The notes under the pieces were generated by a model. It did no database searches, was not told the DNA's origin, and was given only the letters and a program-made list of their open reading frames with translations. Shown here one piece after another: positions 13,587 through 46,734 of a stretch of DNA of 64,000 nucleotides (position 1 is its first letter; each line of letters begins with the position of its first letter). The DNA is from an uncultured Anaerolineales bacterium (GTDB taxonomy: Bacteria > Chloroflexota > Anaerolineae > B4-G1): NCBI GenBank assembly GCA_964649415.1, contig CAZYSK010000024.1, positions 4,711 through 68,710 on the forward strand, read 5' to 3'. The translations under genes and the position numbers were made by a program.

Positions 13587-13620
13587 AGACCCTAAAGGTT
13601 TCAGAGAACCTTTAGGGTCT
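13587..13620. repeat. Palindromic element, family F (AGACCCTAAAGGTT-TCAGAG-AACCTTTAGGGTCT)
   Basis: Perfect 14-bp arms in the intergenic region upstream of ltaE. A second full copy lies inside a CDS at 43183-43216. Confidence 0.85.
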
Positions 13621-13698
13621 GTAAGAGTATGACCTCCCGCGTTTGACGCGGATTTCCTCGGGAAAACAGAGGAGAATGCAGGAACTTGTTCTCTTGCG

Positions 13699-13712
13699 AA
13701 CCTTTAGGGTCT
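13699..13712. repeat. Half copy of family F (AACCTTTAGGGTCT)
   Basis: Identical to the right arm at 13607-13620, 79 nt downstream of the full copy. Confidence 0.6.
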
Positions 13713-13730
13713 TGGGGGACCGCACGGCTG

Positions 13731-13758
13731 TTGACTAGGGTGGGATGGGTACTATAAT
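13731..13758 (+). promoter_or_regulatory. Sigma70-like promoter upstream of ltaE (TTGACT-16 nt-TATAAT)
   Basis: TTGACT 13731-13736 and TATAAT 13753-13758, about 80 nt upstream of ATG 13841, which has a GGAGGTG RBS. Confidence 0.5.
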
Positions 13759-13840
13759 CGGTCTCACGCATCACGAACGCTGACCCCAGCGGTCGGACCG
13801 CGATACGTGCTATACATCATGTCTATGGAGGTGCAACGGT

Positions 13841-14875
13841 ATGGATAGAATCATTGATCTACGCAGCGACACGGTAACCTGGCCGACGCCGGAGATGCGG
13901 GAGGCGATGTACCGGGCGGAGGTGGGCGACGACGTCTACGGAGAGGATCCGAGCGTCAACCGGCTCGAGGCGATGGCGGCGGAGCGACTGGGGAAGGAGG
14001 CGGCGCTGTTCGTCGTCAGTGGCACGATGGGGAACCTGGTGGCGCTGCTGACCCACTGCGGGCGGGGCGACGAGGTGATCCTGGGGCATCGGAGCCACAC
14101 GTTCATATACGAGCAGGGTGGCATGGCAGCGCTGGGGGGCATCATGCCGCACACGGTGCCCAACCAGGACGACGGCACGATGCGGCTGAATGACATCGAG
14201 GCGGCGATCCGGGGCGACAATGTCCACTACCCGCGCTCGCGCCTGGTGTGCCTGGAGAACACGCACAACGTATGCAACGGCTCGCCGGTGACTGCCGAGT
14301 ACACGGCGCAGGTGGCTCGTGTGGCCCACGAGCACGGCCTGGGGGTACACGTGGACGGGGCGCGCATTTTCAACGCAGCGGCGGCGCTGGAGGTGAACGT
14401 GCGGGAGTTGGTGCGGGACGTGGACTCGGTGCAGATCTGCCTTTCGAAGGGATTGTGCGCGCCGGTGGGTTCGCTGGTGTGCGGCAGCGCAGCTTTCATC
14501 GCCGAGGCGCGGCGGGCGCGAAAGGTGGTGGGCGGCGGGATGCGTCAGGCCGGGATATTGGCGGCGGCGGGGATCGTCGCGCTGGAGCGGATCGCGCCCC
14601 GTATGGGCGAGGATCACGCGCGGGCGAAGCAACTGGCGGAAGGGTTGGCTGAGATCCCGGGTCTTGAGGTTGCGCCGGTGGCGACCAATATCCTCTATTT
14701 CGGGCTGACGGACGCGGTGGAGCGGACGCCTGCAGAGGTGAGCGCGGCGCTGGAGGAAAGGGGTGTGCGGATACTGGGCCGGGTGGGCGGCCGCTTCCGA
14801 GCGGTGACGCACTATTGGATCACGGACGAGGACATTGAGCGAACGATCTCCGCGGTGCGGGAGGTGGTGGCGTAG
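13841..14875 (+). CDS. ltaE: Low-specificity L-threonine aldolase
   Basis: 344 aa. LRSDTVT, GDDVYGEDPS, SGTMGN, VHVDGARIFNAA and the PLP-lysine region CLSKGLCAPVGS. Confidence 0.9.
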   Translation: MDRIIDLRSDTVTWPTPEMREAMYRAEVGDDVYGEDPSVNRLEAMAAERLGKEAALFVVSGTMGNLVALLTHCGRGDEVILGHRSHTFIYEQGGMAALGGIMPHTVPNQDDGTMRLNDIEAAIRGDNVHYPRSRLVCLENTHNVCNGSPVTAEYTAQVARVAHEHGLGVHVDGARIFNAAAALEVNVRELVRDVDSVQICLSKGLCAPVGSLVCGSAAFIAEARRARKVVGGGMRQAGILAAAGIVALERIAPRMGEDHARAKQLAEGLAEIPGLEVAPVATNILYFGLTDAVERTPAEVSAALEERGVRILGRVGGRFRAVTHYWITDEDIERTISAVREVVA

Positions 14876-14879
14876 GCGG

Positions 14880-20408: not shown

Positions 20409-22856
20409 CTAGTGCGCACTGTACAGTGCCTGATAGACGGCGAGGTGTTCTCGGACGCGCCGGAGATAGAGGCGCGGTTCGTACAGCGTGACAAGTTCGA
20501 GGAACAGATCGGTGTCGTCGCCGGCAAGCTCCAGCCAACGCTCGGCGCGGGACGGGCCGGCGTTGTAGGCGGCCAGGGCGGCATCTATCCGGCCGTCGAA
20601 CCGGTCGCGCTGCTGGGCCAGGTAGTAGGTGCCGAAACGGAGGCTGACGTAGGGGAGGTAGAGGTCGGCGGTCTCGTAGCCGGGCGGCCAGTCCAATTCG
20701 GCGGCGATCTGTGCGCCGGTGGGGGGGACGACCTGCATCACTCCGTGGGCACTGGCCACCGAAGTGGCGAGGCTTTCGAAGAGGCTCTCCTGGCGGATGA
20801 GGGCGAAGACAAGGAGCGGGTTAAGGCCGCTCAGGCGGGCGTTGTCCAGTACGAGGTCTTCGTAGTAGGTGGGATAGACCAGGCGCGCGACGAAGGTGGG
20901 GGCGTCGAGGACGGTGTCGGCCGGGGAGAGGGACATGACCCGCGCGGCGCAGAGGATGGAGGAACGATACAGGCCGATGTCGCGGAACGCCAGGGCCAGT
21001 TGGTATTGGGCCAGTGCGTCTGCGCGGGTGGCCGTGCGCAGTGCTTCAAGTTCCCATTTGGCTTCCTCGAAGCGTCCCAGGCGCCACAGCGCCAGCCCGC
21101 GTTGGAGGCGGGGATCGGCAGCCAGGTCGGGGGAGAGCTCGCCCAGGCGCACGGCGGATTCCAGGCCCAGCCATCCGGCCAGCCACTCCTCCGCCTCGAC
21201 CTGGGCGGCTGCCGGATCGTATCCGGGATCGGGGCTGTAGCTGGCGGGCGGGAAAGGCGGGGATATGGGAGCGGCCAGCAGGTCGGCAGCCCGGAGGCCA
21301 TAGTAGCCCAGGGGATCAGTGGCGCTGGCGGCCTCAAACGCCTCCTGGGCGGCCTCGGCATCGCCCTGGTCGCGGCGGAGCTTGCCCAGCCAAAGGAGAG
21401 CAATGGGGCGGTAGGGCGAGTCGGGGTAGAGCGCGGCCAGGGTGTCCCAGGAGACCGCGGCGTCGACGAGTTCGCCCAGCCGGTAGGACTGGAGCCCGCT
21501 CCGGAAGAGGGCGGGGGGGGCGTAGTCAGAGTCAGGATAGCGCACGTGGGCGTCGAGGTAGGCCTCGGCAGCATCCTCCAGTTCATCGCCCCGCTCGAGA
21601 AGCTGTGCGGCCTCCCAGAGCGCCTGGGGCGCGTTCGGGTCGTCGGGGACGATCTCCGTAAACTGCGTGTAGGTCTCGATGGCGGCGTCCGCGTCACCGG
21701 CGTCGATGAAGGCCTCCGCCAGGCGCATCCAGGCGTCGCTCCAATGCGCGTTGCCCGGGAAAGAGTCAAGCAGGGTCTCGAACTCGGCGGCTGCCAGTTC
21801 CGGGCTGCCGGCGGCCAGGTACGATAGACCGGCGTACCAGTGGGCGTCGTCCGAGTACGTGTCTGGATAGGTGCGCATGTAGCGGTAGAGCGCCTCGACC
21901 GCCGGGCCGTATGCCTCCCCGTAGTAGTCCACCACGCCGCGCAGGAAGTCGTCCACCGGGCGTCCCGCCTCGACCAATTCGACCAGCGAGAGGTAGGCGT
22001 AGCGCTCATCGGGGTACGCCTCGACGACGGACGTGTGGCGCTCGTAGCCCGCCTCAACCTCGCCGGACAGGATCAGGGTCAGGGCGGCCTGGTGCTCAAT
22101 GCGGGCGCGATAGGCGCGGATCTGGGCGATGTCCAGGATGGCCTCGTATTGGGCGATGGCGGCGGGGTAGTCTTGCAGAGCGACGTGTGTCAGGGCCAGC
22201 TTCTCGCGCATGCCGACCTCGAAAGAGCGGTCAGGCGCATCGGCGAGCGCGGACTCGTAGGCTTCGACGGCGGGAAGATAGGCCCCGCCCGCGTAGAGCG
22301 CGTTTCCCAGCGACTCGTTGACGTACGCAGTGATGACCGTGCCTGCCGACAGGGCGGCCTGGTACGCCTCAGTGGCCGTCAGTGGGTGCCCCGCGCCCAC
22401 CAAAGCCTCGGCCAGGAGGAAGTGGCCGTCGAAAGCCCACTCCCTCTCAGGGTGGGTGGTCAGAAAGTCGCGGAAGGCCCCCGTGGCCGGGTCGTAGTCG
22501 CCCGCGCGCAGATAGGCCGTGCCCAGGCCAAGACGGGCCTGGGCGTCGCCGTCTTGGTCGAGCGGCAGGGCGAGCACGCGGCGGTAGATCCCGGCCGCGG
22601 CCTCGAAGTCACCGTTCTCCGTCGCCCGCGCGGCATCGGCGAGCCATTCGGCTGGGTCGGGCGTGGGTGTTGGTGTTGGTGTTGGGGTGGGGGTAGGCGT
22701 CGGGGTGGGCGTGGGCGTGGAAGTGGGGGTGAGGGTGGGTGTGGGCGTGTCGGTCGCGAGGAATGCCGGCGGCGTCAAACCGAAGGGCAGGTTGCAGGCC
22801 AGCGCAGCCACGGCCAGGGTGGCGAGAACACACAGGGCAATCCTTGCTCGGCTCAT
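20409..22856 (-). CDS. Lipoprotein-type lytic transglycosylase (TPR-like repeats + C-terminal SLT domain)
   Basis: 815 aa from ATG 22856. Signal/lipobox LAVAALAC. A (Thr-Pro)n linker. Many TPR-like helices. SLT motifs ALIRQESLFE, AHGVMQVVP, AYNAGPSRAERW. Confidence 0.8.
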   Translation of the reverse strand: MSRARIALCVLATLAVAALACNLPFGLTPPAFLATDTPTPTLTPTSTPTPTPTPTPTPTPTPTPTPDPAEWLADAARATENGDFEAAAGIYRRVLALPLDQDGDAQARLGLGTAYLRAGDYDPATGAFRDFLTTHPEREWAFDGHFLLAEALVGAGHPLTATEAYQAALSAGTVITAYVNESLGNALYAGGAYLPAVEAYESALADAPDRSFEVGMREKLALTHVALQDYPAAIAQYEAILDIAQIRAYRARIEHQAALTLILSGEVEAGYERHTSVVEAYPDERYAYLSLVELVEAGRPVDDFLRGVVDYYGEAYGPAVEALYRYMRTYPDTYSDDAHWYAGLSYLAAGSPELAAAEFETLLDSFPGNAHWSDAWMRLAEAFIDAGDADAAIETYTQFTEIVPDDPNAPQALWEAAQLLERGDELEDAAEAYLDAHVRYPDSDYAPPALFRSGLQSYRLGELVDAAVSWDTLAALYPDSPYRPIALLWLGKLRRDQGDAEAAQEAFEAASATDPLGYYGLRAADLLAAPISPPFPPASYSPDPGYDPAAAQVEAEEWLAGWLGLESAVRLGELSPDLAADPRLQRGLALWRLGRFEEAKWELEALRTATRADALAQYQLALAFRDIGLYRSSILCAARVMSLSPADTVLDAPTFVARLVYPTYYEDLVLDNARLSGLNPLLVFALIRQESLFESLATSVASAHGVMQVVPPTGAQIAAELDWPPGYETADLYLPYVSLRFGTYYLAQQRDRFDGRIDAALAAYNAGPSRAERWLELAGDDTDLFLELVTLYEPRLYLRRVREHLAVYQALYSAH

Positions 22857-22976
22857 GGTCTGATCGAGGCGTATTCTACCGCCGTCAGGTGGCTTTGGCA
22901 AGGGGCGCGCGCGGCGCCGATGCGGCCTGTTTTCTGTCAACAACGTGTTATTGAACCTCAAAACCCGGCGCGCGCG

Positions 22977-23005
22977 TTGACATACTTGTGGTTTTCGTGT
23001 ATAAT
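22977..23005 (+). promoter_or_regulatory. Consensus sigma70 promoter (TTGACA-17 nt-TATAAT) for the C1 operon
   Basis: TTGACA 22977-22982, 17-nt spacer, TATAAT 23000-23005. The first CDS starts about 390 nt downstream. Confidence 0.6.
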
Positions 23006-23011
23006 AGAGAA

Positions 23012-23397
23012 AATCCAATATTCCACTGCGCATACACTAGCTCCAACGAGCATTGCCGCATTGAGTAGCGTCCTCGTCTCATCAAGCGCGCTTTTTGGTA
23101 ACAGCTTTGGCCTCAGCGGCCTAAGCGTGGGGAACGTCTGGACGGCTCAATACAGCTACCCTGCGGATGGGATTGCGCGGCTGTTTAGCATGATCCGCTT
23201 AACCACAGCCGAGCCGCCGAGAGCCTTCTCTCAGCGGTTCGGTTGTTTGCATGTAGGGAGGTGATATAGCCACATAAGTACAGTCAAACAGGTAATGGTT
23301 AGGTAACTCAAGCAGGTTTCAGGGATTCCGATTAGGGTTGGAACGTTTGCGTATTTCAGGCTCTGAAGGGCCGACACAAATACCTGGAGGTGTTAAC
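23012..23397 (+). promoter_or_regulatory. Long (~385 nt) untranslated leader; candidate riboswitch/attenuator of unknown class
   Basis: No credible ORF. It contains several GC hairpins and a terminator-like stem at 23209-23250. Confidence 0.4.
23209..23250 (+). terminator. Terminator-like stem-loop inside the leader (attenuator candidate)
   Basis: CCGAGCCGCCGAGAG (23209-23223), loop CCTT, CTCTCAGCGGTTCGG (23228-23242). That is 15 positions with 1 wobble and 1 mismatch, followed by TTGTTTGC. Confidence 0.4.
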
Positions 23398-25822: not shown

Positions 25823-25839
25823 GTTGCAAGGAGATGATA

Positions 25840-33380: not shown

Positions 33381-33399
33381 TATTTGGAGGTAGTAGAGG

Positions 33400-37043: not shown

Positions 37044-37927
37044 CACCTCTAGGACTGGACAAGATCGCATGGGCTGTCCACATTGCATGCCTGTTCGAGG
37101 TATGTGCCGACAAGCCGGGCAACGTGACCTGGGGCAAGGATTTCTGGGACACGCGCTTTGTCGACTTCCTGGCCAGTGCTATCGCCATTGGGCCTGCCCT
37201 GCGGGACGCGACTCACACCTCCGTTGGCCAGACCATCCTGCGGGCGGTGAACGACACCCACCAATTCGTGAGCACTAATACCAACCTGGGGATGGTCCTT
37301 CTGCTGGCTCCGTTGGCAAAGGCGGCCGGGCGGGGTCATCCCAATGGACTGCGGCTGGCTGTGAGCGAGGTATTGGAGGCGTTGACCGTGGAGGATGCCC
37401 GCTTGACGTTCGAGGCGATCCGCCTTGCCGCTCCGGGGGGCCTGGGCAGCGATGGTCGCTACGACGTGCACAGGGCAGACGTGGACGTGACGCTCAGAGA
37501 AGCTATGCGGGTGGCTCAGGATCGAGATACCGTGGCGCGGGAGTACGTGACGGACTTCGAAGTGACTTTCGAGCTTGGATACGCGACGCTCCGCCGCTTG
37601 TGGGCAGAGGGCCGCGGATTCTCAGAGTCCATTGTCCAGACTTCCCTCACTATCCTGTCGCAGATGCCGGATACGCTGATCGCGCGCAAGGAAGGAATGG
37701 ACGTTGCTTTGGACGTATCGCGGCGCGCCGGTGTCGTGTTACAGCACGGAGGGGCTTTCTCCGAGCAGGGCCGGGCGGCGTTGCGGGCATTCGATCTGTC
37801 GATCCGGGATGACAAACATCGTCTGAATCCGGGCACCACGGCGGACTTGATCGCAGCTTCGCTCTTCGTCTTCCTGACGGAGGGGGGCGCGTTCGAGGAC
37901 TTCCCGGAGTTGCTTGCACGTTGGTGA
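37040..37927 (+). CDS. Triphosphoribosyl-dephospho-CoA synthase (CitG/MdcB)-family protein ('Orf7' of C1 clusters)
   Basis: 295 aa. EVCADKPGNV, TNTNLGMVLLLAPL, DTLIARK, NPGTTADLIAASLF. ATGA overlap with mptN. Confidence 0.7.
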   Translation: MTPLGLDKIAWAVHIACLFEVCADKPGNVTWGKDFWDTRFVDFLASAIAIGPALRDATHTSVGQTILRAVNDTHQFVSTNTNLGMVLLLAPLAKAAGRGHPNGLRLAVSEVLEALTVEDARLTFEAIRLAAPGGLGSDGRYDVHRADVDVTLREAMRVAQDRDTVAREYVTDFEVTFELGYATLRRLWAEGRGFSESIVQTSLTILSQMPDTLIARKEGMDVALDVSRRAGVVLQHGGAFSEQGRAALRAFDLSIRDDKHRLNPGTTADLIAASLFVFLTEGGAFEDFPELLARW

Positions 37928-38003
37928 GGCAGTCGGCAAAGCAGCAAATCGGCAGAGGGGAGATTGTTTGACACGGTCGCGAGGTGCGGGAGGAACATCG
38001 GGT

Positions 38004-39095
38004 ATGGACCGCCGGCATCCTGCCGGCATGACTCGGGCGCACGATACGGGTCCGCAAGGCCCGCGCTTGCTGTGCGAAGGGTTCGCGGTGTTGACGGCAG
38101 ATGGCCTGATCTTCACGGTCAAGGGGTTGGTTCATCCCCCTGAGCGGGTGATCGCGTATCTGCGGTATCTCCCCGATCCAGAGGGCGGTCGGGAGCGCCT
38201 GGGCGTGCGCTACCGGCGCGTCTACCACTTCGAGGAGCAATTGGAAGTGCTCCAGAATCGCTTCCCGCACTATCTGTGGGACGATGAGGTGTTCGGGGTG
38301 CGTTTGCAGAGCGTGCCTCGGCGTTTTGTCCGGGAGGCATTCGATCCCTGCCTCTGCCTGGCTGATCTCCGTGACCGGGGTCCGGCCGACCTGGTCGAGG
38401 AACACGCCCTGGGTCTGTCGGAGCTGCTGAGAGACGTGGCCGGTGTGCCCGGCGAGGATCTGGGTGTCTCGGGGTCGGTGATGGTGGGCACGCACACAGA
38501 GAACTCGGACATTGACCTCCTCGTATATGGTGACGCGTCGGGGCGGGCCGTCCACCGAGCGCTTCAGCGTCTGTTGGATGAGCCGGGGAGGCCCGTGCGT
38601 CGCCTTGACGGGCAGGAGATGGCCGCACTGCACGCCGAGCATCGGCCGGACACCCCACTGTCTTTCGAGGATTTCTCCCGGCTTCAGAATCGCAAGGTCA
38701 ACGAGGGGCGCTATCGGGGGCGGGAGTATTTCATCCGCTTCGTGAAGCGACCATCGGAGGTGAGTGAGCGGTATGGGGATCGCCGCTTTGAGGCACTGGG
38801 GCAGGCCACGATTCGGGCGGAGGTGACGGACGCCCGTGATGCGATTTTCACGCCCTGTCGCTACACCGTCGCAAACGCGACGGTTCTGGATGGCCCGCCC
38901 GCGCCCGACTTGCGCGAGGTGGTCTCCTTTCGGGGGCGCTTCAGCGACCAGGTGCGCGTAGGTGAGTGGGCCATCGCCCGGGGGAGCCTGGAGCGGGTTG
39001 TGGTCGAAGGCGAGCGGGTGTATCATCACCTGGTCGTCGGTGGACAGGCGGGCGACTACGTGCGCCCTGAGCGCGTGACGTCCCCCGTTCAGTAG
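38004..39095 (+). CDS. Pol-beta-superfamily nucleotidyltransferase-like protein with C-terminal OB-like domain (paralog 1)
   Basis: 363 aa from ATG 38004 (GGAGG 10 nt upstream; ORF-track TTG 37914 is an alternative). NTase signature LGVSGSVMVGTHTENSDIDLLVYG. Clearly paralogous to 42119-43303 over its full length. Confidence 0.6.
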   Translation: MDRRHPAGMTRAHDTGPQGPRLLCEGFAVLTADGLIFTVKGLVHPPERVIAYLRYLPDPEGGRERLGVRYRRVYHFEEQLEVLQNRFPHYLWDDEVFGVRLQSVPRRFVREAFDPCLCLADLRDRGPADLVEEHALGLSELLRDVAGVPGEDLGVSGSVMVGTHTENSDIDLLVYGDASGRAVHRALQRLLDEPGRPVRRLDGQEMAALHAEHRPDTPLSFEDFSRLQNRKVNEGRYRGREYFIRFVKRPSEVSERYGDRRFEALGQATIRAEVTDARDAIFTPCRYTVANATVLDGPPAPDLREVVSFRGRFSDQVRVGEWAIARGSLERVVVEGERVYHHLVVGGQAGDYVRPERVTSPVQ

Positions 39096-39128
39096 GGGCG
39101 CGGTTTCCGCGCCCGCCGGAGTGCCAGA

Positions 39129-40070
39129 GTGCCGGAGTTGATGGCTTTGGAGTCTGAAGACAGGGAGTTGGATACGAAACGGGCTGCGCTGAGGGAAACG
39201 TTCGCCGATATGGAGCGCGTGCTGGTCGCCTACTCTGGCGGCGTGGACAGCGCGTTTCTGCTGTGGGCTGCCTTGGACGCGCTGGGCCCGGAGCGTGTGC
39301 TGGCCGTGACCGCTTCCTCGCCCATATTCGCCCGCCGGGAGTTGAGGGCAGCCGAGGACTTGGCGCATCGCTTGGGGGCTCCCCATCGTTTCGTGCGCAC
39401 CATGCAACTGGAGGATGCGGACGTTGCGGACATTCAGGTGGGACGCACTTCAGAAAGTGCGTCCCACCTGGTTGATGGTGCGCCCGTGAAATTCGCGACG
39501 AATCCGCCGGAGCGATGCTATCTTTGCAAGCGGGAGATATTCGCCCGGCTGGTGGAGGTGGCCCGCGAGGAGGAAATACCCTGGGTCGTCGAGGGCTCCA
39601 ACCTGGACGACCGTGACGAGTACCGGCCAGGCACCCGGGCAGTGCGTGAGTTGGACGTGCGAAGCCCGTTGGAGGAGGTCGGACTGACCAAGGCGGACAT
39701 CCGGGCTCTCTCCCGGCGCGTGGGCTTGCCGACGTGGAATCAGCCAGCGCAGACCTGTTTGGCCACGCGCTTCCCGCACGGCACGCCGATCACGCGTGAG
39801 CGGCTGGAGCGGGTGGAGGCCGCTGAGGTGGTGTTGAGGGAGATGGGATTCGGCGAGCTGCGGGTGCGGGATCACGTCGACCCTGCGGCGGGTCCTATCG
39901 CCCGCATCGAGGTGCTCCGTGAGGATGTGGCACGGCTGGCGCGACCGGAAGCCGCGGAACGGGTGGTGGCCGCGCTGCGGGGGCTGGGCTACGACTACGT
40001 CACGTTGGACCTGGGGGGCTACCGGCGCGGTGGCCTCAGTGGGCAGGTTGGTGAAGTAGTAGATTGGTAG
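39129..40070 (+). CDS. larE: LarE, ATP-dependent sulfur transferase of nickel-pincer (NPN) cofactor biosynthesis (PP-loop ATP pyrophosphatase)
   Basis: 313 aa. PP-loop VAYSGGVDSAFL, DDRDEYRPG, CLATRFPHG, RVRDH, YVTLDLGGYRRG. There are three Cys: CYLC 39516-39527 and TGT 39756-39758. It carries the family A insert at 39417-39474. Confidence 0.85.
   Translation: MPELMALESEDRELDTKRAALRETFADMERVLVAYSGGVDSAFLLWAALDALGPERVLAVTASSPIFARRELRAAEDLAHRLGAPHRFVRTMQLEDADVADIQVGRTSESASHLVDGAPVKFATNPPERCYLCKREIFARLVEVAREEEIPWVVEGSNLDDRDEYRPGTRAVRELDVRSPLEEVGLTKADIRALSRRVGLPTWNQPAQTCLATRFPHGTPITRERLERVEAAEVVLREMGFGELRVRDHVDPAAGPIARIEVLREDVARLARPEAAERVVAALRGLGYDYVTLDLGGYRRGGLSGQVGEVVDW
39417..39474 (+). repeat. 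Repeat family A copy 2, in-frame in larE
   Basis: Identical to 34449-34506 and in the same reading frame (ADVADIQVGRTSESASHLV). The hairpin is at 39435-39470. Confidence 0.9.
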
Positions 40071-40131
40071 ATTGGTACATTGGTACATTGGTAGATTGGT
40101 AGATTGGTACATTGGTACATTGGTCAATCGG
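40060..40131. repeat. Octanucleotide tandem array [(TAGATTGG)2(TACATTGG)2]x2 + TCAATCGG
   Basis: Nine 8-nt units from 40060 to 40131. The second unit contains the larE stop codon TAG (40068-40070). The array fills the larE-larB spacer. Confidence 0.9.
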
Positions 40132-40143
40132 AGTGTGATATAG

Positions 40144-40887
40144 ATGGAAGTGAAGTGGTTGCGTGAGTTGTTGGAGAACGTACGAGAGGGCGAGACGGAC
40201 ATAGAGGATGCGTTGGCCCGGTTGCGGGGATTCCCCTACGAGGATCTGGGATTCGCCCGGCTGGACAGCCATCGCACCTTGCGCAAGGGTTTCCCCGAGG
40301 TGATATTCTGCCCGGGCAAGACTACCGGGCAGATCGTGCAGATCGTAGAGCGAATCCGGGCGCGGGAGGGGCGGGTGATGGCGGCGCGCGCCGAGCCAGC
40401 GGTGGCAGATGCGGTACAGCAGGCTTTTCCCGACGCGGTCTATCATCCTGCCGCGCGGATGATCGTCGTCGGTGAGCCGGCCCCCCAGCAGGGACGGGGG
40501 ACGGTGCTTGTGGTCAGCGCGGGCACCGCAGACATCCCGGTGGCCGACGAGGCCGTCGTGACGGCTGGGACGATGGGCAGCCCCGTGGAACGGCTGTACG
40601 ACGTCGGCGTGGCGGGCATTCACCGGCTGCTGGGCAACCGTGACCGCCTGTTCGCCGCCAATGTGCTGGTGGTTGTGGCCGGGATGGAGGGAGCGCTGGC
40701 CAGTGTCGTGGCCGGCCTGGTGGACCGGCCTGTTGTGGCTGTCCCCACCAGTGTCGGCTACGGGGCCAGTTTCGGCGGGTTGTCTGCGCTGCTGACGATG
40801 TTGAATAGCTGCTCACCCGGCGTGTGCACGGTCAACATCGACAATGGGTTTGGGGCGGGATACCTGGCTCACTTGATCAATCAGTGA
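40144..40887 (+). CDS. larB: LarB, NPN cofactor biosynthesis carboxylase/hydrolase (PurE-like)
   Basis: 247 aa. N-terminal LD.HR..R.GFPEVIFCPGKT, then a PurE-like core VLVVSAGTADIPVADEA, VVVAGMEGALASVVAG, VVAVPTSVGYG. Confidence 0.85.
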   Translation: MEVKWLRELLENVREGETDIEDALARLRGFPYEDLGFARLDSHRTLRKGFPEVIFCPGKTTGQIVQIVERIRAREGRVMAARAEPAVADAVQQAFPDAVYHPAARMIVVGEPAPQQGRGTVLVVSAGTADIPVADEAVVTAGTMGSPVERLYDVGVAGIHRLLGNRDRLFAANVLVVVAGMEGALASVVAGLVDRPVVAVPTSVGYGASFGGLSALLTMLNSCSPGVCTVNIDNGFGAGYLAHLINQ

Positions 40888-40915
40888 AAGGATTACTCTC
40901 AACGAGGGGTGACAG

Positions 40916-42115
40916 ATGAGGATTGCATATTTCGATTGCTTCTCGGGTATCAGTGGGAACATGGTTCTGGGGGCGCTGGTGGACGCCGGCCTGGACGTCG
41001 AGCGGTTAAGGGCCGAGTTAGCCCGTCTGCCGGTGTCCGGCTACGAACTGGTCGCCGAGCCGGTGCAGAAACGCGGTCTGCGCGGCACGCACGTCAGCGT
41101 TGAGGTGTCGGAGCACGGGGTGGAGCGTCACCTACATGACATTGAGGAGATCATCGGGGGGAGCGATCTGCCCGATGAGGTCAAGCGCACCGGTCTGGCG
41201 ATATTCCGACGATTGGCGGAGGCGGAGGCGGGGGTGCACGGCATGCCGCTGGATCACGTGCACTTCCACGAAGTGGGAGCGGTGGACGCCATCGTGGACG
41301 TGGTGGGGGCAGCAATTGGACTGTGGCTGATGGGCATAGAGCAGGTCTACGCATCGCCGGTGCACGTGGGATGTGGGACGGTGACGTGTGCCCACGGTAC
41401 ACTGCCGGTGCCTGCCCCGGCGACGCAGGAGCTGCTGCGTGGGGTGCCGATCTATGGGCGGGATGTGGAATCGGAACTGGTGACCCCAACGGGAGCGGCC
41501 ATCCTCACGACGCTGGCCGAGGCGTTTGGGAGCGCGCCCCCGATGCGTGTGGAACAGATGGGCTACGGCGCTGGGACCCGCGATCTGCCGCTGCCTAATC
41601 TGCTGCGCGTCTCGATCGGTGAGGTCGAGGCGGCGTTGGAGGAGATGGAGGGGTACGAGGCGGACGTCATCACCGTCATCGAGACCAACATCGACGACAT
41701 GAACCCACAGTTCTACGAGCACGTGATGGCCAAGTTGTTCGATGCGGGGGCGGTTGACGTGTTCCTGACGCCCATCCAGATGAAGGCGGGACGGCCGGGC
41801 GTGCAGTTGAGTGTGCTCGTGGCCCAGGCGCACGTTGCGGCTGCCACGGAGACCCTGTTCGCTGAGACGAGTACCATCGGGGTGCGGATGGCCTCAATGC
41901 GGCGGTGGAAACTGGGGCGCGAGCGCGTGGTGGTGGAGACGCGCTATGGGCCGATTGGCACGAAGGTGGCCCGGCGTGGGGAGGAAGTGGTGAACGCGGC
42001 TCCGGAGTATCGAGAATGCCGCCGCGTCGCCGAGGAGCTTGGCGTGCCGCTGAAGGACGTGTATCAGGCGGCTACGGAGGCTGTCCGCGCCTATGTCCAG
42101 CAGGAGACGGGTTAA
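40916..42115 (+). CDS. larC: LarC, nickel-inserting cyclometallase of NPN biosynthesis (DUF111)
   Basis: 399 aa in a single frame. MRIAYFDCFSGISGNMVLGALVDAG, HFHEVGAVDAIVDVVG, ETNIDDMNPQ, PIQMKAGRPG. Confidence 0.88.
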   Translation: MRIAYFDCFSGISGNMVLGALVDAGLDVERLRAELARLPVSGYELVAEPVQKRGLRGTHVSVEVSEHGVERHLHDIEEIIGGSDLPDEVKRTGLAIFRRLAEAEAGVHGMPLDHVHFHEVGAVDAIVDVVGAAIGLWLMGIEQVYASPVHVGCGTVTCAHGTLPVPAPATQELLRGVPIYGRDVESELVTPTGAAILTTLAEAFGSAPPMRVEQMGYGAGTRDLPLPNLLRVSIGEVEAALEEMEGYEADVITVIETNIDDMNPQFYEHVMAKLFDAGAVDVFLTPIQMKAGRPGVQLSVLVAQAHVAAATETLFAETSTIGVRMASMRRWKLGRERVVVETRYGPIGTKVARRGEEVVNAAPEYRECRRVAEELGVPLKDVYQAATEAVRAYVQQETG

Positions 42116-42118
42116 GCC

Positions 42119-43303
42119 GTGACAGATATGCAGGAGAGGCGCAAGCCCAAGGACCGGGACTTCCTCCGTACCCGCGAGGGCATGTTCTTCTGTGTGACCG
42201 GTTATCTGCACCCGCCGGATCGGTATACCGCCTATCTCAAGTATTCGCCTGCTGCGTCGGGGAAGTGGCACAATGCGGAGACGGCCTACCAGCGGGAACT
42301 GCCTTACTACCACGTCCGCAGTGTGGAGGATACAATCCAGCATCTGGAGGCGCATTACCCCTGGTACGTCGCGGATTGCCCCGTCCGGAATATCCGCTTC
42401 TCAATGGTGCCCCGGGAATACGTCGCCCGCTACTACGATCCACAGGAGCGGTTGAGGGAGATACTGGCGCATCCTGGCGACTCGCTGGAGGAGGAGGTGT
42501 GTGGTCTGGCGACCGAGATCGCCGAGACCGCCGGCGTGCCCGTCGGCGATCTGGGTATCACGGGATCGATCCTGATCGGATTGCACAACCCGACCTTCTC
42601 GGATATTGATCTGGTGGTGTATGGGCGGCAGAGCGCCCGTCGGGTGCGCCGGGCCTTGGGCGCGGGGGACAACGAATCGGGAAAGGAACGAAGGGGGAGA
42701 GCAGCGCAGTCCGCTGCGCCGCGAATCCGCGAGTTGGGCGCGGCGTTCATCGAGCGCTGGAGCCGGGGAATCGCGGAGCGCTTTCCCTTGACGGTGAGTG
42801 AGGCGCAGTATCTCGCCCGCCGGCGTTGGAACTACGGCTGGTACGGGGAGCGGTATTTCTCGATCCACCCGATCCGCACGGATGACGAGATCACCGAGCA
42901 CTACGGAGATCACATCTACCGCGGCCAGGGAGCCGCACGAATCCGGGCCACCGTTGTCGGCACGAGCGACGCGCTGTTCATGCCCGCCGGGTACCTGCTG
43001 GCGGACGTGGAGGTCTTGGAAGGCCTTGCAGAGGCGGCGGATGTCCGGGAACTGGTCTCCTACGAGGGTCTCTATCGCGACGTGGCCGACGTGGGGCAGA
43101 GAATCGAGGCCAAGGGGAACGTGGAGCGAGTGGACGCGGACATTGCGGACATTGATAGCGCGTCCGTCCGTGCGTCCGCGGCAGACCCTAAAGGTTTCGG
43201 AAAACCTTTAGGGTCTGACATCAGGCTGGTGGTCGGCACGAGCGCCCTCAAGGGTGAGGGGTACATACGGCCGCTTCCCGCCGGGGATAGCGCGGACAAC
43301 TGA
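42119..43303 (+). CDS. Pol-beta-superfamily nucleotidyltransferase-like protein (paralog 2)
   Basis: 394 aa. LGITGSILIGLHNPTFSDIDLVVYG. Collinear with paralog 1 except for two extra segments, which coincide with the repeat elements at 42664-42720 and 43136-43216. Its stop overlaps the next ATG (TGATG). Confidence 0.6.
   Translation: MTDMQERRKPKDRDFLRTREGMFFCVTGYLHPPDRYTAYLKYSPAASGKWHNAETAYQRELPYYHVRSVEDTIQHLEAHYPWYVADCPVRNIRFSMVPREYVARYYDPQERLREILAHPGDSLEEEVCGLATEIAETAGVPVGDLGITGSILIGLHNPTFSDIDLVVYGRQSARRVRRALGAGDNESGKERRGRAAQSAAPRIRELGAAFIERWSRGIAERFPLTVSEAQYLARRRWNYGWYGERYFSIHPIRTDDEITEHYGDHIYRGQGAARIRATVVGTSDALFMPAGYLLADVEVLEGLAEAADVRELVSYEGLYRDVADVGQRIEAKGNVERVDADIADIDSASVRASAADPKGFGKPLGSDIRLVVGTSALKGEGYIRPLPAGDSADN
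42664..42720 (+). repeat. Composite repeat B copy 2 (B1 42664-42697 + B2 hairpin with flipped loop 42704-42719), in-frame
   Basis: B1 is 34/34 identical to 27559-27592. The hairpin is GCGCAG-TCCG-CTGCGC, against GCGCAG-CGGA-CTGCGC in copy 1. It is translated as GDNESGKERRGRAAQSAAP. Confidence 0.85.
43136..43216 (+). repeat. Double hairpin element in-frame in paralog 2: GCGGAC-repeat hairpin (43136-43179) + family F palindrome (43183-43216)
   Basis: GCGGACATTGCGGACATT...GCGTCCGTCCGTGCGTCCGC, then AGACCCTAAAGGTTT-CGGA-AAACCTTTAGGGTCT. It is translated as DADIADIDSASVRASAADPKGFGKPLGSD. Confidence 0.8.
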
Positions 43304-44670
43304 TGGCGGAAGCGGTCTTCCTGATATACGTCGCCACGGTCATGGTGATGGGCGTCAAGGCCAAAGCTAAGACGCTGGAGACGTTCATCCTGGGCGACGT
43401 GCTGGACACGAAGACGATGGTGGCCACAATCGTGTCCACGTTCTACGGCGCGTCTGCCATCCTTGGCGGGGTGAGCCTGACGTACCAGTTGGGGCTGGAC
43501 GTAATCTGGTTCATGGTGCCCTTCTATCTGGGCAACGTGGCCATCATCCTCTTGCTCAAGCGGATCGCTTCCTCAGAAAGGTGCACGCTGCCAGGCTTCC
43601 TGGGCGACTTCTACGGCAATGGGTTCGCTGTGGCAAGTTCGATGCTGTTGGTGACTCTGTGCCTCGTTCCGGAGGAGATCATCGCCGGGGGAAAGATCCT
43701 ATCCCTGTTCACGTCAATGCCCGTGGAGGCGGCGATGGGCGCTATGACCTTCGTGTTGGTGGTGCCTGTTGCCATCGGCGGGATGAAAGCAGACGTGATA
43801 ACGGATATCGCTCAGTTCGCCCTGATGTTGATCATGCTTGGCGTCATGGTGCTGTTCCTCGGCCATACGGGCCGCCTGGGCCTGCAGCCGGACCTGGACT
43901 CGGGTGTCCCGCCCGGGCATCTGACTCTCTGCTCGTCTCTATCGCTGCAGGAAATCGCCGTGTTCTTCGTCTCCTTCTTCTTCCTGCCGATCACCTCAGC
44001 ACCTCTGTACCTGCGCTTCTTTGCCTCGGAGTCAGAAGCGTGCTCCAGGAAATCGGTGCTGTCGTCTGTCGCGATATGGATGGTCGTAGACGCGATCATC
44101 GTGCTCTGCGGCTTCGCGGCCCTGCGGATGTTTCCGAACCTGGACGATCCAGATATGTCGTTCGTCCTGCTTGGGATGGCGATGCCCCCGGTGGGTCGGG
44201 GCGTGTTCACTATAGGGCTGCTGGCCGCGATCATGAGCACGGTGAACTCCTTTCTCCAGTCCGGGGCGTCAAGCCTGGCGCACGACGCATTCAGGCATTT
44301 CATGCCTGGAACCAGTGACCGGCGATTGCTCGCGCTGTCCAGGGTGTTCGTGATTGTGCTGGGCTTGCTGAGCCTGGCGCTGGCTCTGTGGTTCCAGATG
44401 ATCGTGCCGGCGCTGTTGTTCACGTTGAGTATGTGGACGGCCGGGGTGCTGGTTCCCACTCTGGCGGCTCTCAGCGGCGTGCGGTTGAGGAAGCGGTCGG
44501 CGTGGGCCAGTCTGGCGGCCGGGACACTATCCTGTCTGGCCTGGCAGATGGCGCAGCCGTTTCAGGTAGATGCGTTGTTCGTCGGCCTGGGATGCTCTGT
44601 GCTCGCCGCGCTTATCTCGGAAGTCCTGCCCGGTCGCGCTCAGGGGGCGCAGCGGACTGCGCCTTGGTAG
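43303..44670 (+). CDS. Sodium:solute symporter (SSS) family transporter
   Basis: 455 aa with about 12 TM segments. GGMKADVITDIAQF-type motif. The last 8 codons and the stop (GAQRTAPW*) are encoded by repeat unit 1 at 44644. Confidence 0.75.
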   Translation: MAEAVFLIYVATVMVMGVKAKAKTLETFILGDVLDTKTMVATIVSTFYGASAILGGVSLTYQLGLDVIWFMVPFYLGNVAIILLLKRIASSERCTLPGFLGDFYGNGFAVASSMLLVTLCLVPEEIIAGGKILSLFTSMPVEAAMGAMTFVLVVPVAIGGMKADVITDIAQFALMLIMLGVMVLFLGHTGRLGLQPDLDSGVPPGHLTLCSSLSLQEIAVFFVSFFFLPITSAPLYLRFFASESEACSRKSVLSSVAIWMVVDAIIVLCGFAALRMFPNLDDPDMSFVLLGMAMPPVGRGVFTIGLLAAIMSTVNSFLQSGASSLAHDAFRHFMPGTSDRRLLALSRVFVIVLGLLSLALALWFQMIVPALLFTLSMWTAGVLVPTLAALSGVRLRKRSAWASLAAGTLSCLAWQMAQPFQVDALFVGLGCSVLAALISEVLPGRAQGAQRTAPW

Positions 44671-44742
44671 AGGAGCGGGGCGCAGCGGACTGCGCCTTGG
44701 TAGAGGAGCGGGGCGCAGCGGACTGCGCCTTGGTAGAGGAGC
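44644..44742 (+). repeat. Three perfect tandem 33-nt units of hairpin module B2 (GGGGCGCAGCGGACTGCGCCTTGGTAGAGGAGC)
   Basis: Units at 44644-44676, 44677-44709 and 44710-44742, then a degenerate start of a fourth unit. Each has the GGCGCAG-CGGA-CTGCGCC hairpin followed by TTGGTAG. Confidence 0.9.
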
Positions 44743-44798
44743 GGGGTGAAGCGGTGAATCCGCGAGGAGAAAGGGTCGGGCCACGACTGGGCCTCAAT

Positions 44799-45611
44799 AT
44801 GCATCCCCGGTGGGTGGGGGGCGGCACGCCTGGCGCGTTTCTCTTTCCCCTGAGGGAACTGGGCCTGAGCGTCCTCGAGTTCGGCTTGAACCTCACGGCT
44901 CCCGATTGGCCGGAGATGGACGCCTTGATCAAAGCGTGCCATCAGTTGGGGTTCCTGCTGAGCTTTCACGCGCCTTTCAAAGGCCCGCACAACCCGGCCG
45001 GTTTCTCTGGCCCCAAGCGGGGGGAACTCGAATCGCTGTATGCGCCGGCCATGCGCTATGCCGCTGGATTTGCCGAGGAGATGGGGCCTGTCAGTCTCGT
45101 CGTTCACGGGGCTAAGGGGAATCGCCCGCGCGAGGCGCTGCGGCGGGACACCGCGGCTTTCCTGACGTGGATATCGCAGGAGTGGCCGGACGTTCGCCCC
45201 TCCCTCGAGCTCCTGTATCGGGATGAGAACGTGGTCAAGGTCGGGGACAACAAGCCGGAACTGGTTGAGCTCGTCTCCGGGCTGGGGCTGGCGCAGGTCG
45301 GTATCTGCTGGGATATGGGTCACGATGCGCGCAACGGTTCGAAACCCGTTCCGCCTGGATTTCTGGCGCGGGTGAGACATGTGCATGCCCACGACGTCTC
45401 TCCCGATGGGAAGGATCACTGTCCACTGGTTTTCGGCAACGTGCCCTACGCCCGCCATCTGCGTCGCCTGGGGCAGGTGGGCTATGGTGGGACGATCATT
45501 CTCGAGGTGAACGGTGTCCGCGTGTGTGACCTGGCGACAGGGCGGGGGAAGAAGCCTATCGAGATTCTGCAGGATAGCTTCGTGGAGTTGGCCCGGGTAA
45601 TCTCTGTGTGA
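44799..45611 (+). CDS. Sugar phosphate isomerase/epimerase (xylose-isomerase-like TIM barrel)
   Basis: 270 aa from ATG 44799. FHAPF, LELLY, ICWDMGHD, HVHAHD, IILEVNG metal-ligand pattern. The ORF-track start at 44388 would read through the repeats and overlap the symporter. Confidence 0.75.
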   Translation: MHPRWVGGGTPGAFLFPLRELGLSVLEFGLNLTAPDWPEMDALIKACHQLGFLLSFHAPFKGPHNPAGFSGPKRGELESLYAPAMRYAAGFAEEMGPVSLVVHGAKGNRPREALRRDTAAFLTWISQEWPDVRPSLELLYRDENVVKVGDNKPELVELVSGLGLAQVGICWDMGHDARNGSKPVPPGFLARVRHVHAHDVSPDGKDHCPLVFGNVPYARHLRRLGQVGYGGTIILEVNGVRVCDLATGRGKKPIEILQDSFVELARVISV

Positions 45612-45627
45612 TGATATAGCGAGCCAT

Positions 45628-45735
45628 CATCCCTACAAAGGCGCCGTTCTGACGGCGCACTAACATCCCTACAAAGGCGCCGTTCTGACGGCGCGCTAAC
45701 ATCCCTACAAAGGCGCCGTTCTGACGGCGCGCTAA
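45628..45735. repeat. Three tandem 36-nt units, family C (CATCCCTACAAAGGCGCCGTTCTGACGGCGCRCTAA)
   Basis: Units at 45628-45663, 45664-45699 and 45700-45735, between convergent genes. Hairpin GCGCCGT-TCTG-ACGGCGC with CTAC 3 nt upstream. The last unit supplies the stop codon (45732-45734) of the minus-strand lipoprotein gene. Confidence 0.9.
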
Positions 45736-46598
45736 TCGCCGCTCAGGCCGTCGATCTTGCGGGCCTGGCGCGTTGTCAGGTCGAGCAGGTAGATGCCCTC
45801 TGTGTTGTCCTGCACCGGGCAGGCCCATTTCATGGCCGTTACCAGTTCGGTGTTGCTTCGCCACCTACCTGGGGCTGTCAGATCGCCCGCTGTCGTGGGA
45901 TAGAAGGAAGCCGCCTCGTCATCTCTTGGCAATCCTGCGAAATCTGTCTGATGGTAGACGGCCGCTGTCCGCATAGTCGCGTCCAGTTCAACGACCGTGA
46001 GCCTGTATCCCACATGGCAGGCGTCGCCCCATAGTACACCGGCAAGCACGGCCACATAGCGACCATCGGGCGAGACGCGCGGAGCGTGTCCCGTGCCGAT
46101 CTGGTGTCTCTCTCCGGTCTCGACGTCGCGGATGCAGACATCCGCCTCTAGAGGGGGGATTGATATGATCCACAATGTGTCTTCCCTGTTCACGACTGGC
46201 TGTGAAGGATCGCGGTCACTGTACACGATATGGTCCCCATTGGGGAACCAAGCCAGGCTGGAGATCTCATCGATGACCAGGATCTTGTGCTGTTGGCCAT
46301 CCGCGTCCTGCACGATCAGGGTGCCGAGGTCTTGCACGACTGCTAGGCGCGAGTTGTCCGGAGACGGGAATGGCAGGGTGGTTGTCGTTGCAGGGGAGGC
46401 CGTTGCGGTTGTTGGCGGGAGGGACGGGGGCGGCGTGCGGATGGCCGCATGAGGGCTTTCTGTCCCAGGTGCTACCGGCGTCGGATCTGGGGCAGAGGTG
46501 GGGGAGACCGCTGGAGCACAACTGAGAAACGTGACAATCAGTGCTGTGACTGTCAACGAAAGCCATCCTTTGCTGCTACTGATGTTGATCACTCTCAT
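45732..46598 (-). CDS. Lipoprotein with TolB/PD40-like beta-propeller repeats
   Basis: 288 aa. Signal plus lipobox LIVTFLSC. Pro/Thr-rich linker. Repeats such as WFPNGDHIVYSD and VSPDGRYVAV. Confidence 0.65.
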   Translation of the reverse strand: MRVINISSSKGWLSLTVTALIVTFLSCAPAVSPTSAPDPTPVAPGTESPHAAIRTPPPSLPPTTATASPATTTTLPFPSPDNSRLAVVQDLGTLIVQDADGQQHKILVIDEISSLAWFPNGDHIVYSDRDPSQPVVNREDTLWIISIPPLEADVCIRDVETGERHQIGTGHAPRVSPDGRYVAVLAGVLWGDACHVGYRLTVVELDATMRTAAVYHQTDFAGLPRDDEAASFYPTTAGDLTAPGRWRSNTELVTAMKWACPVQDNTEGIYLLDLTTRQARKIDGLSGD

Positions 46599-46608
46599 CC
46601 TCGCTTTT

Positions 46609-46734
46609 GGGGGCGGCGCGTATGGAAACGCGCCCTACGTTGGCCGATGGTTCGGCGGGGGCGGCGTGTATGGAAACGCGCCCTACGTTGGCTGATGGTT
46701 CGGCGGGGGCGGCGCGTATGGAAACGCGCCCTAC
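46609..46734. repeat. Tandem 48-nt units x2.6, family D (GGGGGCGGCGCGTATGGAAACGCGCCCTACGTTGGCYGATGGTTCGGC)
   Basis: Units at 46609-46656 and 46657-46704, plus a partial unit at 46705-46734. Hairpin GGCGCGT-ATGGAA-ACGCGCC is followed directly by CTAC. The array fills the spacer between the FtsX permease stop and the lipoprotein start. Confidence 0.9.

Follow-up and report, generated by a model that had tools for sequence, protein, structure and literature searches.

REP-type hairpin families in a Chloroflexota genome region: a probable cognate transposase for one family, a recurrent CRGA loop and in-frame copies in metabolic genes

Repetitive extragenic palindromes (REPs) and their associated tyrosine transposases (RAYTs) have, to our knowledge, been studied almost entirely in Proteobacteria. 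The REPs and bacterial interspersed mosaic elements (BIMEs) of Escherichia coli, their transposase TnpA-REP and the REPtron organisation are said to have been set out by Nunvar in 2010 and by Ton-Hoang in 2012. The repeats considered here lie in a 64,000-nt stretch of DNA from an uncultured Anaerolineales bacterium (hereafter the window), which equals bases 4800-68799 of the 125-kb JGI metagenome contig 3300029258, Ga0309772_1000138. We give a probability of roughly three in four to the reading that this region carries several REP-type families, present singly or in head-to-tail arrays, that one of them (family A) is the cognate REP of a RAYT encoded elsewhere, and that the copies lying in frame within genes are tolerated there. 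Two features deserve a specialist's attention, a loop, CRGA (R being A or G), that is conserved across changing stems, and the frequent in-frame residence of the units in genes.

Among related elements, the Rickettsia palindromic elements (RPEs) are 100-150 nt long and CGTC-tagged and are not known to have an associated transposase; their description is reportedly due to Ogata and colleagues in 2000. RPEs have been linked to CGTC REPs (PMC3733652). The GTAG-tagged REPs (Di Nocera et al. 2013, PMC3733652) include the family GTAG-23 of a member of the Chloroflexi, Thermomicrobium roseum. They occur as tandemly reiterated clusters that take in flanking DNA, as several families per genome and as occasional intragenic copies, while head-to-tail dimers are rare and the loops mostly measure 2-3 nt (TY, CMA) (PMC3733652). 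The long, double-foot REPs of TnpA-Y1 subclass 2.4 present a 5' GT[AG]G and a complementary 3' C[TC]AC in one hairpin (Quentin et al. 2018, PMC6006769), and REPs inserted in genes without a frame break, in the tnpA gene itself, have been described (PMC6006769). In class 3 TnpA-Y1 genes, the enzyme has a Y....Q motif and the hairpins carry a 5' CnGA foot, CnGA-GCCGCGACC-GTNA-GGGAGCGG (Quentin et al. 2018, PMC6006769). As regards recognition, the 5 bp nearest the hairpin tip in the E. coli TnpA-REP complex are without protein contact, and specificity resides in the foot (PMC3479197).

The repeats described here and their candidate RAYT have in common with the E. coli system short, GC-rich, multicopy palindromes, a Y1 HUH protein of about 190 residues with a Y-x-x-x-N motif and flanked by its own REPs, and the clustering of units in intergenic gaps after genes. 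The differences concern the host, a member of Chloroflexota, and family A itself, whose perfect 15-17-bp stem has no bulge and whose GTGG is mirrored by CCAC. In addition, the BIMEs of E. coli alternate, whereas the arrays described here run head to tail and many copies are intragenic.

Family A and its candidate RAYT

Family A is (C)AGGTGGGACGCACTT-CAGA-AAGTGCGTCCCACCT(G), a perfect palindrome of 34-36 nt in which GTGG forms part of the basal stem near the 5' end and CCAC lies opposite near the 3' end. The window has two copies, both on the + strand. The first is a composite at 34441-34518, in frame in fhcC (34281-35171), where a 36-nt perfect palindrome (34467-34502; 16-bp stem, loop CAGA, GTGG...CCAC) sits inside an imperfect hairpin of about 70 nt. 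The second, at 39409-39486 in larE, is 92% identical to the first and has its palindrome at 39435-39470 (16-bp stem, CAGA). A scan with the 26-nt core found 28 copies on 25 metagenome contigs and six more on four contigs of Chloroflexota metagenome-assembled genomes (MAGs), labelled Thermoflexia, Anaerolineae (two) and Chloroflexota, which bears out the expectation of further copies beyond the window. Alignment of all A copies indicates that the repeated unit is the palindrome itself: the flanks are unrelated, and most copies are bare and located between genes. In one copy (on contig L038), a change in the stem is compensated, GGGTCGCAC/GTGCGACCC, an argument for the maintenance of pairing.

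On contig L019, three A copies fall within 1.9 kb, and two of them bracket an open reading frame (ORF) of 192 codons. The encoded protein contains the motifs PNHYHFLI and YIHGNPVKHG..WPYS, the latter with the tyrosine motif Y-x-x-x-N of the RAYT type, and scores 31.8-33.3 bits against Pfam Y1_Tnp (cut-off 23). In the PDB it matches only E. coli TnpA-REP (4er8), and does so weakly (E 0.027, 17.6 bits), over 26 residues that cover the YI..NPVKHG..WP.S motif. Exact A palindromes flank the RAYT gene on four contigs (L019, L031, L038 and L061) and variant A-type hairpins flank it on L037, and the same layout of a gene between palindromes recurs in about a dozen further loci fetched via the protein family (variant-stem orthologues, L040-L059). 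Relatives of the protein number 4017 at E <=1e-10, many of them named 'REP element-mobilizing transposase RayT' or attributed to Chloroflexi, Anaerolineae or Chloroflexota.

The link with the window is provided by the sample. Window DNA recurs in the European Nucleotide Archive (ENA) assemblies ERZ27256770 and ERZ27256778 (as L003 in the latter) and in Logan runs, and ERZ27256778 also contains a 1.7-kb contig, L061, which carries three exact A palindromes and a RAYT that is 191/192 identical to the L019 protein and belongs to the same 90% cluster. These loci substantiate, for family A, the REP/RAYT likeness proposed in the initial annotation. Its statement that the window has no transposase was likewise borne out, as no Y1 transposase was found, either within the window or in the 4.8 kb and 8 kb next to it (Pfam gene tables; tblastn with the RAYT, best E 2.5). 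In L061, the gene (956-1534) has a TGG-to-TAG change at codon 136 (W136*), after the catalytic tyrosine, by which the C-terminal 57 residues are lost. A C-terminal truncation of E. coli TnpA-REP raised its cleavage activity (Messing et al., PMC3479197), and by analogy the truncated gene need not be dead; alternatively, it may be a pseudogene or a variant present in the population. Five other RAYT candidates (P0012, P0053, P0006, P0017 and P0001) were set aside as coming from other samples or being associated with a GCAAC-stem variant.

Judged from its sequence, family A is a REP in the strict sense, because it has a GTGG/CCAC double foot and a cognate RAYT encoded between A palindromes. The foot layout is that of the double-foot REPs of subclass 2.4, a likeness by foot only. 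Family A would be the cognate REP of a class-2-type RAYT, a Y1 HUH transposase that acts on single-stranded DNA and whose gene, located elsewhere, forms a REPtron with the flanking palindromes. If this enzyme works as E. coli TnpA-REP does, it would bind the folded hairpin and the foot on single-stranded DNA, cleave nearby and rejoin the strands, and copies would then be seeded wherever they are tolerated. With the A loci, uncultured Chloroflexota supply a clear REPtron in which REP and RAYT match exactly.

Some RAYT orthologues reside inside type I restriction-modification operons, in the order hsdM-RAYT-hsdS-hsdR in one set and hsdM-hsdS-RAYT-hsdR in another (L040-L045, with the RAYT at L040:10001-10609, and L050-L053, with the RAYT at 3001-3585). 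The hsdS gene upstream of the RAYT appears split or shortened in L052 and L053, and the RAYT at L031:648-1226 adjoins an ORF that, judged from its sequence, is HsdM-like.

Short-stem families and the shared loop

In a de novo list of hairpins (perfect stem of at least 7 bp, loop of 3-8 nt), all the hairpins named in the initial annotation were recovered at their positions and with their loops (families A, F, B2 with its flipped copy, C, and the hairpin at 26794). A MAFFT alignment of the hairpin units came out of register and was rejected. On sequence grounds, B2, C with the 26794 hairpin, the 46128 hairpin and probably D constitute a second, related superfamily, characterised by a 7-bp GC-rich stem with compensated sequence changes, the CRGA loop and, 3' of the hairpin, a conserved tail, CTYYGTRR or CTCTAGAG. 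B2 reads GGCGCAG-CGGA-CTGCGCC-TTGGTAGAGG, the same plan as that of the C-type and 46128-type units. Its array on the + strand (44644-44754; 3.4 copies of 33 nt, with hairpins at 44646, 44679 and 44712 and the tail TTGGTAGAGGAGC) overlaps the last codons of an SSF transporter gene and occupies the gap before an AP_endonuc_2 gene. The C array (45628-45735, - strand), located between convergent genes, has three copies of 36 nt, GCGCCGT-CAGA-ACGGCGC-CTTTGTAGGGATG, whose hairpins at 45641, 45677 and 45713 show the loop as TCTG on the + strand. A C-type unit at 26779-26822 (+ strand), intergenic between the mtd-like and ATP-grasp genes, consists of two abutting hairpins with arms CGCCAT/ATGGCG, the second of which (26794-26811) is GCGCCAT-CGGA-ATGGCGC followed by its tail; C and the 26794 hairpin are one family, GCGCCRT-CRGA-AYGGCGC-CTTTGTAGG. 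The 46128 unit (46128-46153, + strand), GCGGATG-CAGA-CATCCGC with tail CTCTAGAG, is found inside the - strand PD40 lipoprotein gene 45732-46598, and a hairpin with the same stem, GCGGATG-CGGG-CATCCGC (36285-36302), inside a RimK-like gene, is of uncertain membership. Finally, the D array (46609-46752, - strand; 2.6 copies of 48 nt, GTAG-GGCGCGT-TTCCAT-ACGCGCC) is intergenic within a - strand operon.

The stems had been described as unrelated. Several of them do differ, but C and the 26794 hairpin belong together, and B2, C and 46128 have their 3' tail in common; overall, a 3' tail with GT[AG][AG] or CTAGAG is common to five of the six short-stem families. Three contigs of sample Ga0180432 (L012, L025 and L029) contain further short-stem CRGA units as head-to-tail arrays (34-36 nt) and with these same tails. 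These are GCGCCAT-CAGA or -CGGA with the tails CTTCGTAAG, CTCTGTAGG or CTTTGTGGT, GCGGACG-CAGA with the tail CTCTAGAG (arrays in L025 and L029), to which type the window's 46128 hairpin belongs, and CCGACCG-CAGA or -CGGA. An A palindrome directly adjoins a C-type array in L012.

Family F (16-bp stem, CAG...CTG ends, TT-CRGA-AA tip) is like A in architecture and unlike it in sequence. One F palindrome occupies a divergent intergenic region at 13587-13621 (+ strand; hairpin 13587-13620, 14-bp stem, loop TCAGAG), directly downstream of half an A-like arm, AGGTGGGCG. The other, at 43182-43217 (16-bp stem, CGGA), ends a composite at 43136-43217 (+ strand) that starts with two copies of GCGGACATT and GTCCG inverted repeats and is in frame in the C-terminal part of gene 42119-43303. 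A degenerate F-like hairpin, AGACCTGACAGGTT-CTCCGA-AACCTGCCGGGTCT (955-989, - strand), lies in a 50-nt spacer between Cu-oxidase_4 and YggS-like genes and has GTAG 3 nt upstream and 6 nt downstream. All units fold far better than shuffles (z -3 to -8.6). B2, C, D and F are labelled REPs here because of their form, their arrays and their company, and the short-stem families are probably REPs too, served by the same or another RAYT.

Features in common with the GTAG REPs are a 6-13-bp stem, a short loop, a GTAG tag, tandem clusters including flanking DNA, coexisting families and intragenic copies. The position of the tag differs. In B2 and C it is found 3-4 nt away, on the 3' side of the CRGA strand (CTAC on the 5' side), within a longer conserved tail, CTYYGTRR, and the loops are CRGA. 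The initial annotation had placed GTAG/CTAC within 0-3 nt of the stems, which holds for B2 (3 nt) and D (CTAC, 0 nt); in C and the 26794 hairpin the distance is 4 nt, 3' of the hairpin as in B2, and GTAG is absent from A and from both good F copies (13587 and 43182), F being without any GT[AG]G. On the strand where the tag of B2 and C is 5' of the hairpin, it reads CTAC, the reverse of the canonical REP arrangement. Only in D does a canonical 5' GTAG directly precede the stem (on the - strand), and D does not have the common loop, its own being TTCCAT (ATGGAA on the + strand). By chance, GTAG/CTAC would occur on one or other side of a hairpin, at up to six offsets, with a probability of 0.066, and the foot alone is only modestly significant.

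The loop is shared far beyond chance. Of the 17 perfect hairpins with a 4-nt loop and a stem of at least 7 bp in the window, 12 have CRGA/TCYG, and so do six of the 11 distinct sequences; given that CAGA, CGGA and their complements make up 1.67% of window positions, the binomial probability of six in 11 is 9e-9. A null model of 100 dinucleotide-preserving shuffles, against which the initial annotation had proposed to set the loop, does not match the observed frequency, with a mean of 5.6 tetraloop hairpins, 0.09 of them with a CRGA/TCYG loop. The excess persists when homologous families are merged (B2/C/26794), with a CRGA-type loop in four of nine (P ~1e-5, by our own arithmetic), and it extends outside the window to related contigs, where CRGA is the loop of five of 32 distinct non-A tetraloop hairpins (0.5 expected). 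Within this lineage, the loop varies by transitions only (CGGA, CAGA and CGAA; TCCG, TCTG and TTCG on the other strand) and is the most constant part of the hairpins across at least six stems. We regard the CRGA loop as a genuine, lineage-specific trait.

From the common loop and foot, the initial annotation derived one shared machinery. This would be a single protein, RAYT or other factor, that reads the CRGA loop together with the GTAG/CTAC foot and mobilises or binds all families whatever their stem, an explanation that fits the strong over-representation of CRGA on at least six different stems in the window and related contigs, as well as the 3' tail common to most short-stem families. Of all the alternatives it survives best, and we still consider it unlikely. 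Where RAYT orthologues are 63-88% identical, they are flanked by a constant stem, AGGTG...CGCACYT (AGGTG-GGA or -CAA-CGCACYT), whereas the loop varies in length and sequence (TCTG, CAGA, CGGA, TTCG, GGG, CGG, TAG, CCC, CAG, CTG, CAA and GCG). Because of this variation, and because the base pairs at the tip are uncontacted in the E. coli complex (PMC3479197), a shared loop-and-foot machinery is not supported. The feet also differ by family, with GTGG in the stem and mirrored on both sides in A, a 3' tag at 3-4 nt in B2 and C, a 5' tag at 0 nt in D and none in F, and in all of the approximately 15 loci examined the RAYT genes are flanked only by A-type hairpins.

The shared loop could have arisen by common descent with rapid compensated turnover of the stem, through a structural need of the single-stranded tip or through a loop-binding factor. 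In our opinion, reading of the loop by a RAYT is a less likely cause than common descent or a constraint on the tip of the hairpin. That the loop transitions reflect deamination of exposed loop cytosines is speculation only. The stem is kept while the loop varies across orthologous RAYTs, whereas the loop is kept while the stem varies within one genome; this contrast amounts to a natural experiment, which could help to separate the features read by the transposase from the hairpin's own requirements. A bolder reading is that, in this Anaerolineae-like lineage, constraint may act on the CRGA tip, and not on the stem or a 5' GTAG guide, and the tip may define a whole REP superfamily, whose stems, at least six in number, are interchangeable and which routinely colonises essential metabolic genes in frame. 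We hold this to be rather improbable. If it were true, a RAYT or another single-strand DNA-binding factor would read the loop, unlike in the E. coli TnpA-REP paradigm, and the system would be a free-living counterpart of the RPE phenomenon.

Three further ideas about the tetranucleotide were discarded. Membership of the class 3 hairpins with a CnGA foot was considered, since the CnGA tetranucleotide recurs here and family F has CAGA at its start and TCTG at its end. It was rejected in that CRGA forms the loop in the present units, whose stems bear no relation to those of Table S1 of that study, and the RAYT is of the Y...N type. A pairing of the guide dinucleotide (GTAG to CT, GTGG to CC) with the loop (TCTG/TCCG) was dropped, foot type and loop type being uncorrelated, and a pseudoknot between the loop CAGA and the tail TCTG was rejected by reasoning on steric grounds.

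Several observations weigh against the proposal that these families are REPs with family A as the cognate REP of the RAYT. The RAYT contig is tied to the window by the shared sample and the identical REP only, and its RAYT has the W136* change. Exact units of B2, C, D, F and D7 (a purine-rich block described below) were found only in the window's own record when the fetched loci were searched with 2-4 mismatches allowed, and no RAYT flanked by B2, C, D or F units was found among the RAYT loci examined. The GTAG of B2 and C, on the 3' side with a spacer of 3-4 nt, is opposite to the canonical 5' guide, and F has no GT[AG]G. Moreover, the loop is better conserved across stems than any other part, for which neither binding by an E. 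coli-type RAYT nor simple descent gives an explanation.

Units between genes and in coding sequence

A different explanation regards the hairpins primarily as RNA-level signals (intrinsic terminators, attenuators or 3' stabilisers of mRNA) selected in place, and not as mobile DNA. The B2, C and D arrays are indeed placed directly downstream of stop codons or where convergent genes meet, and the REPs of E. coli stabilise upstream mRNA (PMC3479197). Nevertheless, a terminator scan of 27001-47000 gave five sites (9.9 expected), all of them away from the repeats, and no repeat is followed by a T-run, the tails being TTGGTAG, CTTTGTAG and GTTGG. Intrinsic terminators are excluded as the primary nature of the units because of these two results. 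An Rfam search gave no match, the loop faces either way with respect to transcription (flipped copy at 42702; opposed arrays in L012), and identical units occur in unrelated contexts, within genes and beside the transposase. Overall, an RNA-level origin is quite unlikely.

Six or seven of the approximately 20 units are in frame in genes, namely fhcC, larE, an ATP-grasp gene, a nucleotidyltransferase-like gene and the PD40 lipoprotein gene, within 20 kb of housekeeping operons. The initial annotation had overlooked this position, which applies to about a third of the units. In larE, the in-frame insertion comprises 23 codons (69 nt, 39420-39488) and is absent from 14 homologues and from the sequences of LarE crystal structures; at the A insert of fhcC, which measures about 17 codons or more, solved homologues have a gap of about 17 residues. 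In the ATP-grasp gene (26891-28129), the unit at 27551-27625 (+ strand) consists of a purine-rich D7 block and a B2 hairpin, GGCGCAG-CGGA-CTGCGCC (27598), with the tail TTGGAAGG. It encodes GDNESGKERRGEGAQRTAP, about 20 residues in a variable loop that are lacking in most aligned homologues, one of which (P0242) has a shorter insert at the same site. The second D7 block (42656-42720, - strand), in frame in the nucleotidyltransferase-like gene 42119-43303, carries a flipped B2 hairpin (GCGCAG-TCCG-CTGCGC on the + strand, 42702-42719). In this gene, the D7/B2 block adds about 12 residues, and the F block adds about 20 near the C-terminus relative to the paralogue 38004-39095. In the PD40 lipoprotein gene, the 46128 unit, a putative insertion, is read in frame as PPLEADVCIRD.

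In the proposed REP scenario, such stop-free copies in surface loops of the fhcC, larE, ATP-grasp, nucleotidyltransferase-like and lipoprotein products would persist in the manner of the Rickettsia RPEs. The likeness to RPEs lies in palindromic repeats that are in frame in genes that are functional and unrelated to one another and that add peptide which homologues lack. The two groups have no sequence relationship, the insertions here measure 50-70 nt and are built around a RAYT-type REP, and no unit has a terminal CGTC tag, family A containing CGTC only within its stem. Frame-preserving intragenic REPs are already known, those described by Quentin et al. in tnpA and the present ones in metabolic genes, and their density here is notable. 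The density of in-frame inserts in genes of the tetrahydromethanopterin (H4MPT) pathway and of the nickel-pincer cofactor (Lar) indicates that the entry of REPs into coding sequence is not peculiar to obligate intracellular bacteria.

Two side observations concern gene boundaries and repeats in these proteins. The database call for the AP_endonuc_2 gene starts within the B2 array, so that 44664-44798 yields an N-terminus with LVEERGAADCA three times; the real start is probably the ATG at 44799. Three LarE homologues (P0125, P0131 and P0134) have one or two extra tandem copies of the 9-residue GVRSPLQ.I just before the conserved VRSPLEE, an in-frame expansion of LarE that differs in kind from the insertion above.

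Common to the two genic A copies is a unit of 70-78 nt, which forms a single long, imperfect hairpin (-29.4 kcal/mol, z -8.6); therefore, the copied unit is in their case larger than the bare REP. This larger unit would suit miniature, non-autonomous derivatives of an IS200/IS605-type insertion sequence, comparable to palindrome-associated or miniature inverted-repeat transposable elements (PATE/MITE-like), which would be mobile as defined units bounded by the ends proper to the transposase and would not be REPs of a domesticated RAYT. The enzyme is indeed a Y1_Tnp, and several RAYT genes occur in different neighbourhoods. However, its catalytic motif is Y-x-x-x-N (YIHGN) as in TnpA-REP and not the Y-x-x-x-Q of IS200 (motif classes in PMC6006769), there is no tnpB partner, the same perfect palindrome stands on both sides of the gene in place of distinct left and right ends, and most copies are bare palindromes of 34-36 nt. 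Such an origin is judged very unlikely.

Even less credence is given to the view that the in-frame copies are a shared peptide module under protein selection and the DNA hairpin is incidental. Both genic A copies are read in the same frame, as the peptide ADVADIQVGRTSESASHLV, and both D7 copies likewise give the same peptides. Against this, the same DNA is mostly intergenic, in both orientations, and is read in another frame in L011; homologues lack the segments; and the host-frame signal of G+C at third codon positions, present to either side of the repeats, drops inside them. A search of the three repeat-encoded peptides, joined, against 5.8 billion proteins gave 10 word candidates, none of which scored, a result that shows only the rarity of the composite peptides. 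A CRISPR array is ruled out, as whole units of 33, 36 or 48 nt are tandemly repeated, 96-98% identical throughout, with no unique spacers.

Other repeats and the genetic setting

Between larE and larB, an 8-nt tandem array of about eight copies, TTGGTAGA/TTGGTACA (40059-40124, + strand), repeats an octamer that is the 3' tail of the B2 unit. Logan contig L002 begins within it, and Logan short-read contigs end at A, D7 and this array; in practice, the repeats break short-read assemblies at predictable places and inflate gene calls. In the two D7 blocks (27551-27615 and 42656-42720), the purine-rich 5' part has the same orientation while the attached B2 hairpin is flipped (CGGA vs TCCG). If palindromes invert in place, for example by hairpin- or cruciform-mediated template switching, this would be the expected outcome. 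A GCGGAC/GTCCGC motif recurs in the window (34449-34466, 39417-39434 and 43136-43181) and in L015, L023, L027 and L029, as the 9-nt tandem GCGGAC(A/G)TT beside A and F, in the B2 loop region and as CGGACGCACGACC beside the L029 hairpins; it may be a preferred target or a remnant of older elements. Another palindrome family, ACGGGCCAGGTTTCT-TTTC-AGAAACCTGGCCCGT, whose loop is not CRGA, has two copies on contig L032 (6280-6313 and 8423-8452), which also carries a family-A copy.

The two lower-GC blocks from which the initial annotation had found the repeat families missing are confirmed by the GC profile, and the CRGA families are absent from them. One of them does contain an A-like palindrome in an intergenic position (60926-60957), CAGGTTGGGAGCCC-GCGT-GGGCTCCCAACCTG, with the loop GCGT.

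The host of the window is a high-GC bacterium, and the named relatives of its LarE are Anaerolineae or Anaerolineales. Together with the four MAGs that carry the exact A core and the names of the transposase relatives, these point most probably to an Anaerolineae-like member of Chloroflexota; cluster names of the LarE and RAYT relatives gave no further taxonomic information. Gene clusters in the region are tightly packed, as in the centre of the window, where the + strand encodes the H4MPT-linked C1-transfer pathway (fhc, ftr, mch and mtd-like genes) together with larB, larC and larE. The stretch 25316-43303 amounts to a full H4MPT-linked C1-transfer cluster with larB, larC and larE interleaved, on a probable Chloroflexota contig. 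At its start, a separate ORF of 168 codons (25316-25822) matches the C-terminal part of LarC only, and the nucleotidyltransferase-like genes 38004-39095 and 42119-43303 are two paralogues. Beyond the left end of the window (L003:18178-21208) lie genes for an N6_N4 methyltransferase and an XcyI-type restriction enzyme, after which the ENA version has a pair of IS3-type transposase genes (HTH_Tnp_1 and rve). Lastly, the - strand gene 20409-23033, with TPR and SLT domains, contains a hexamer-dodecamer tandem repeat of GGGTGG/GGGCGTGG in about 16 copies (22654-22749).

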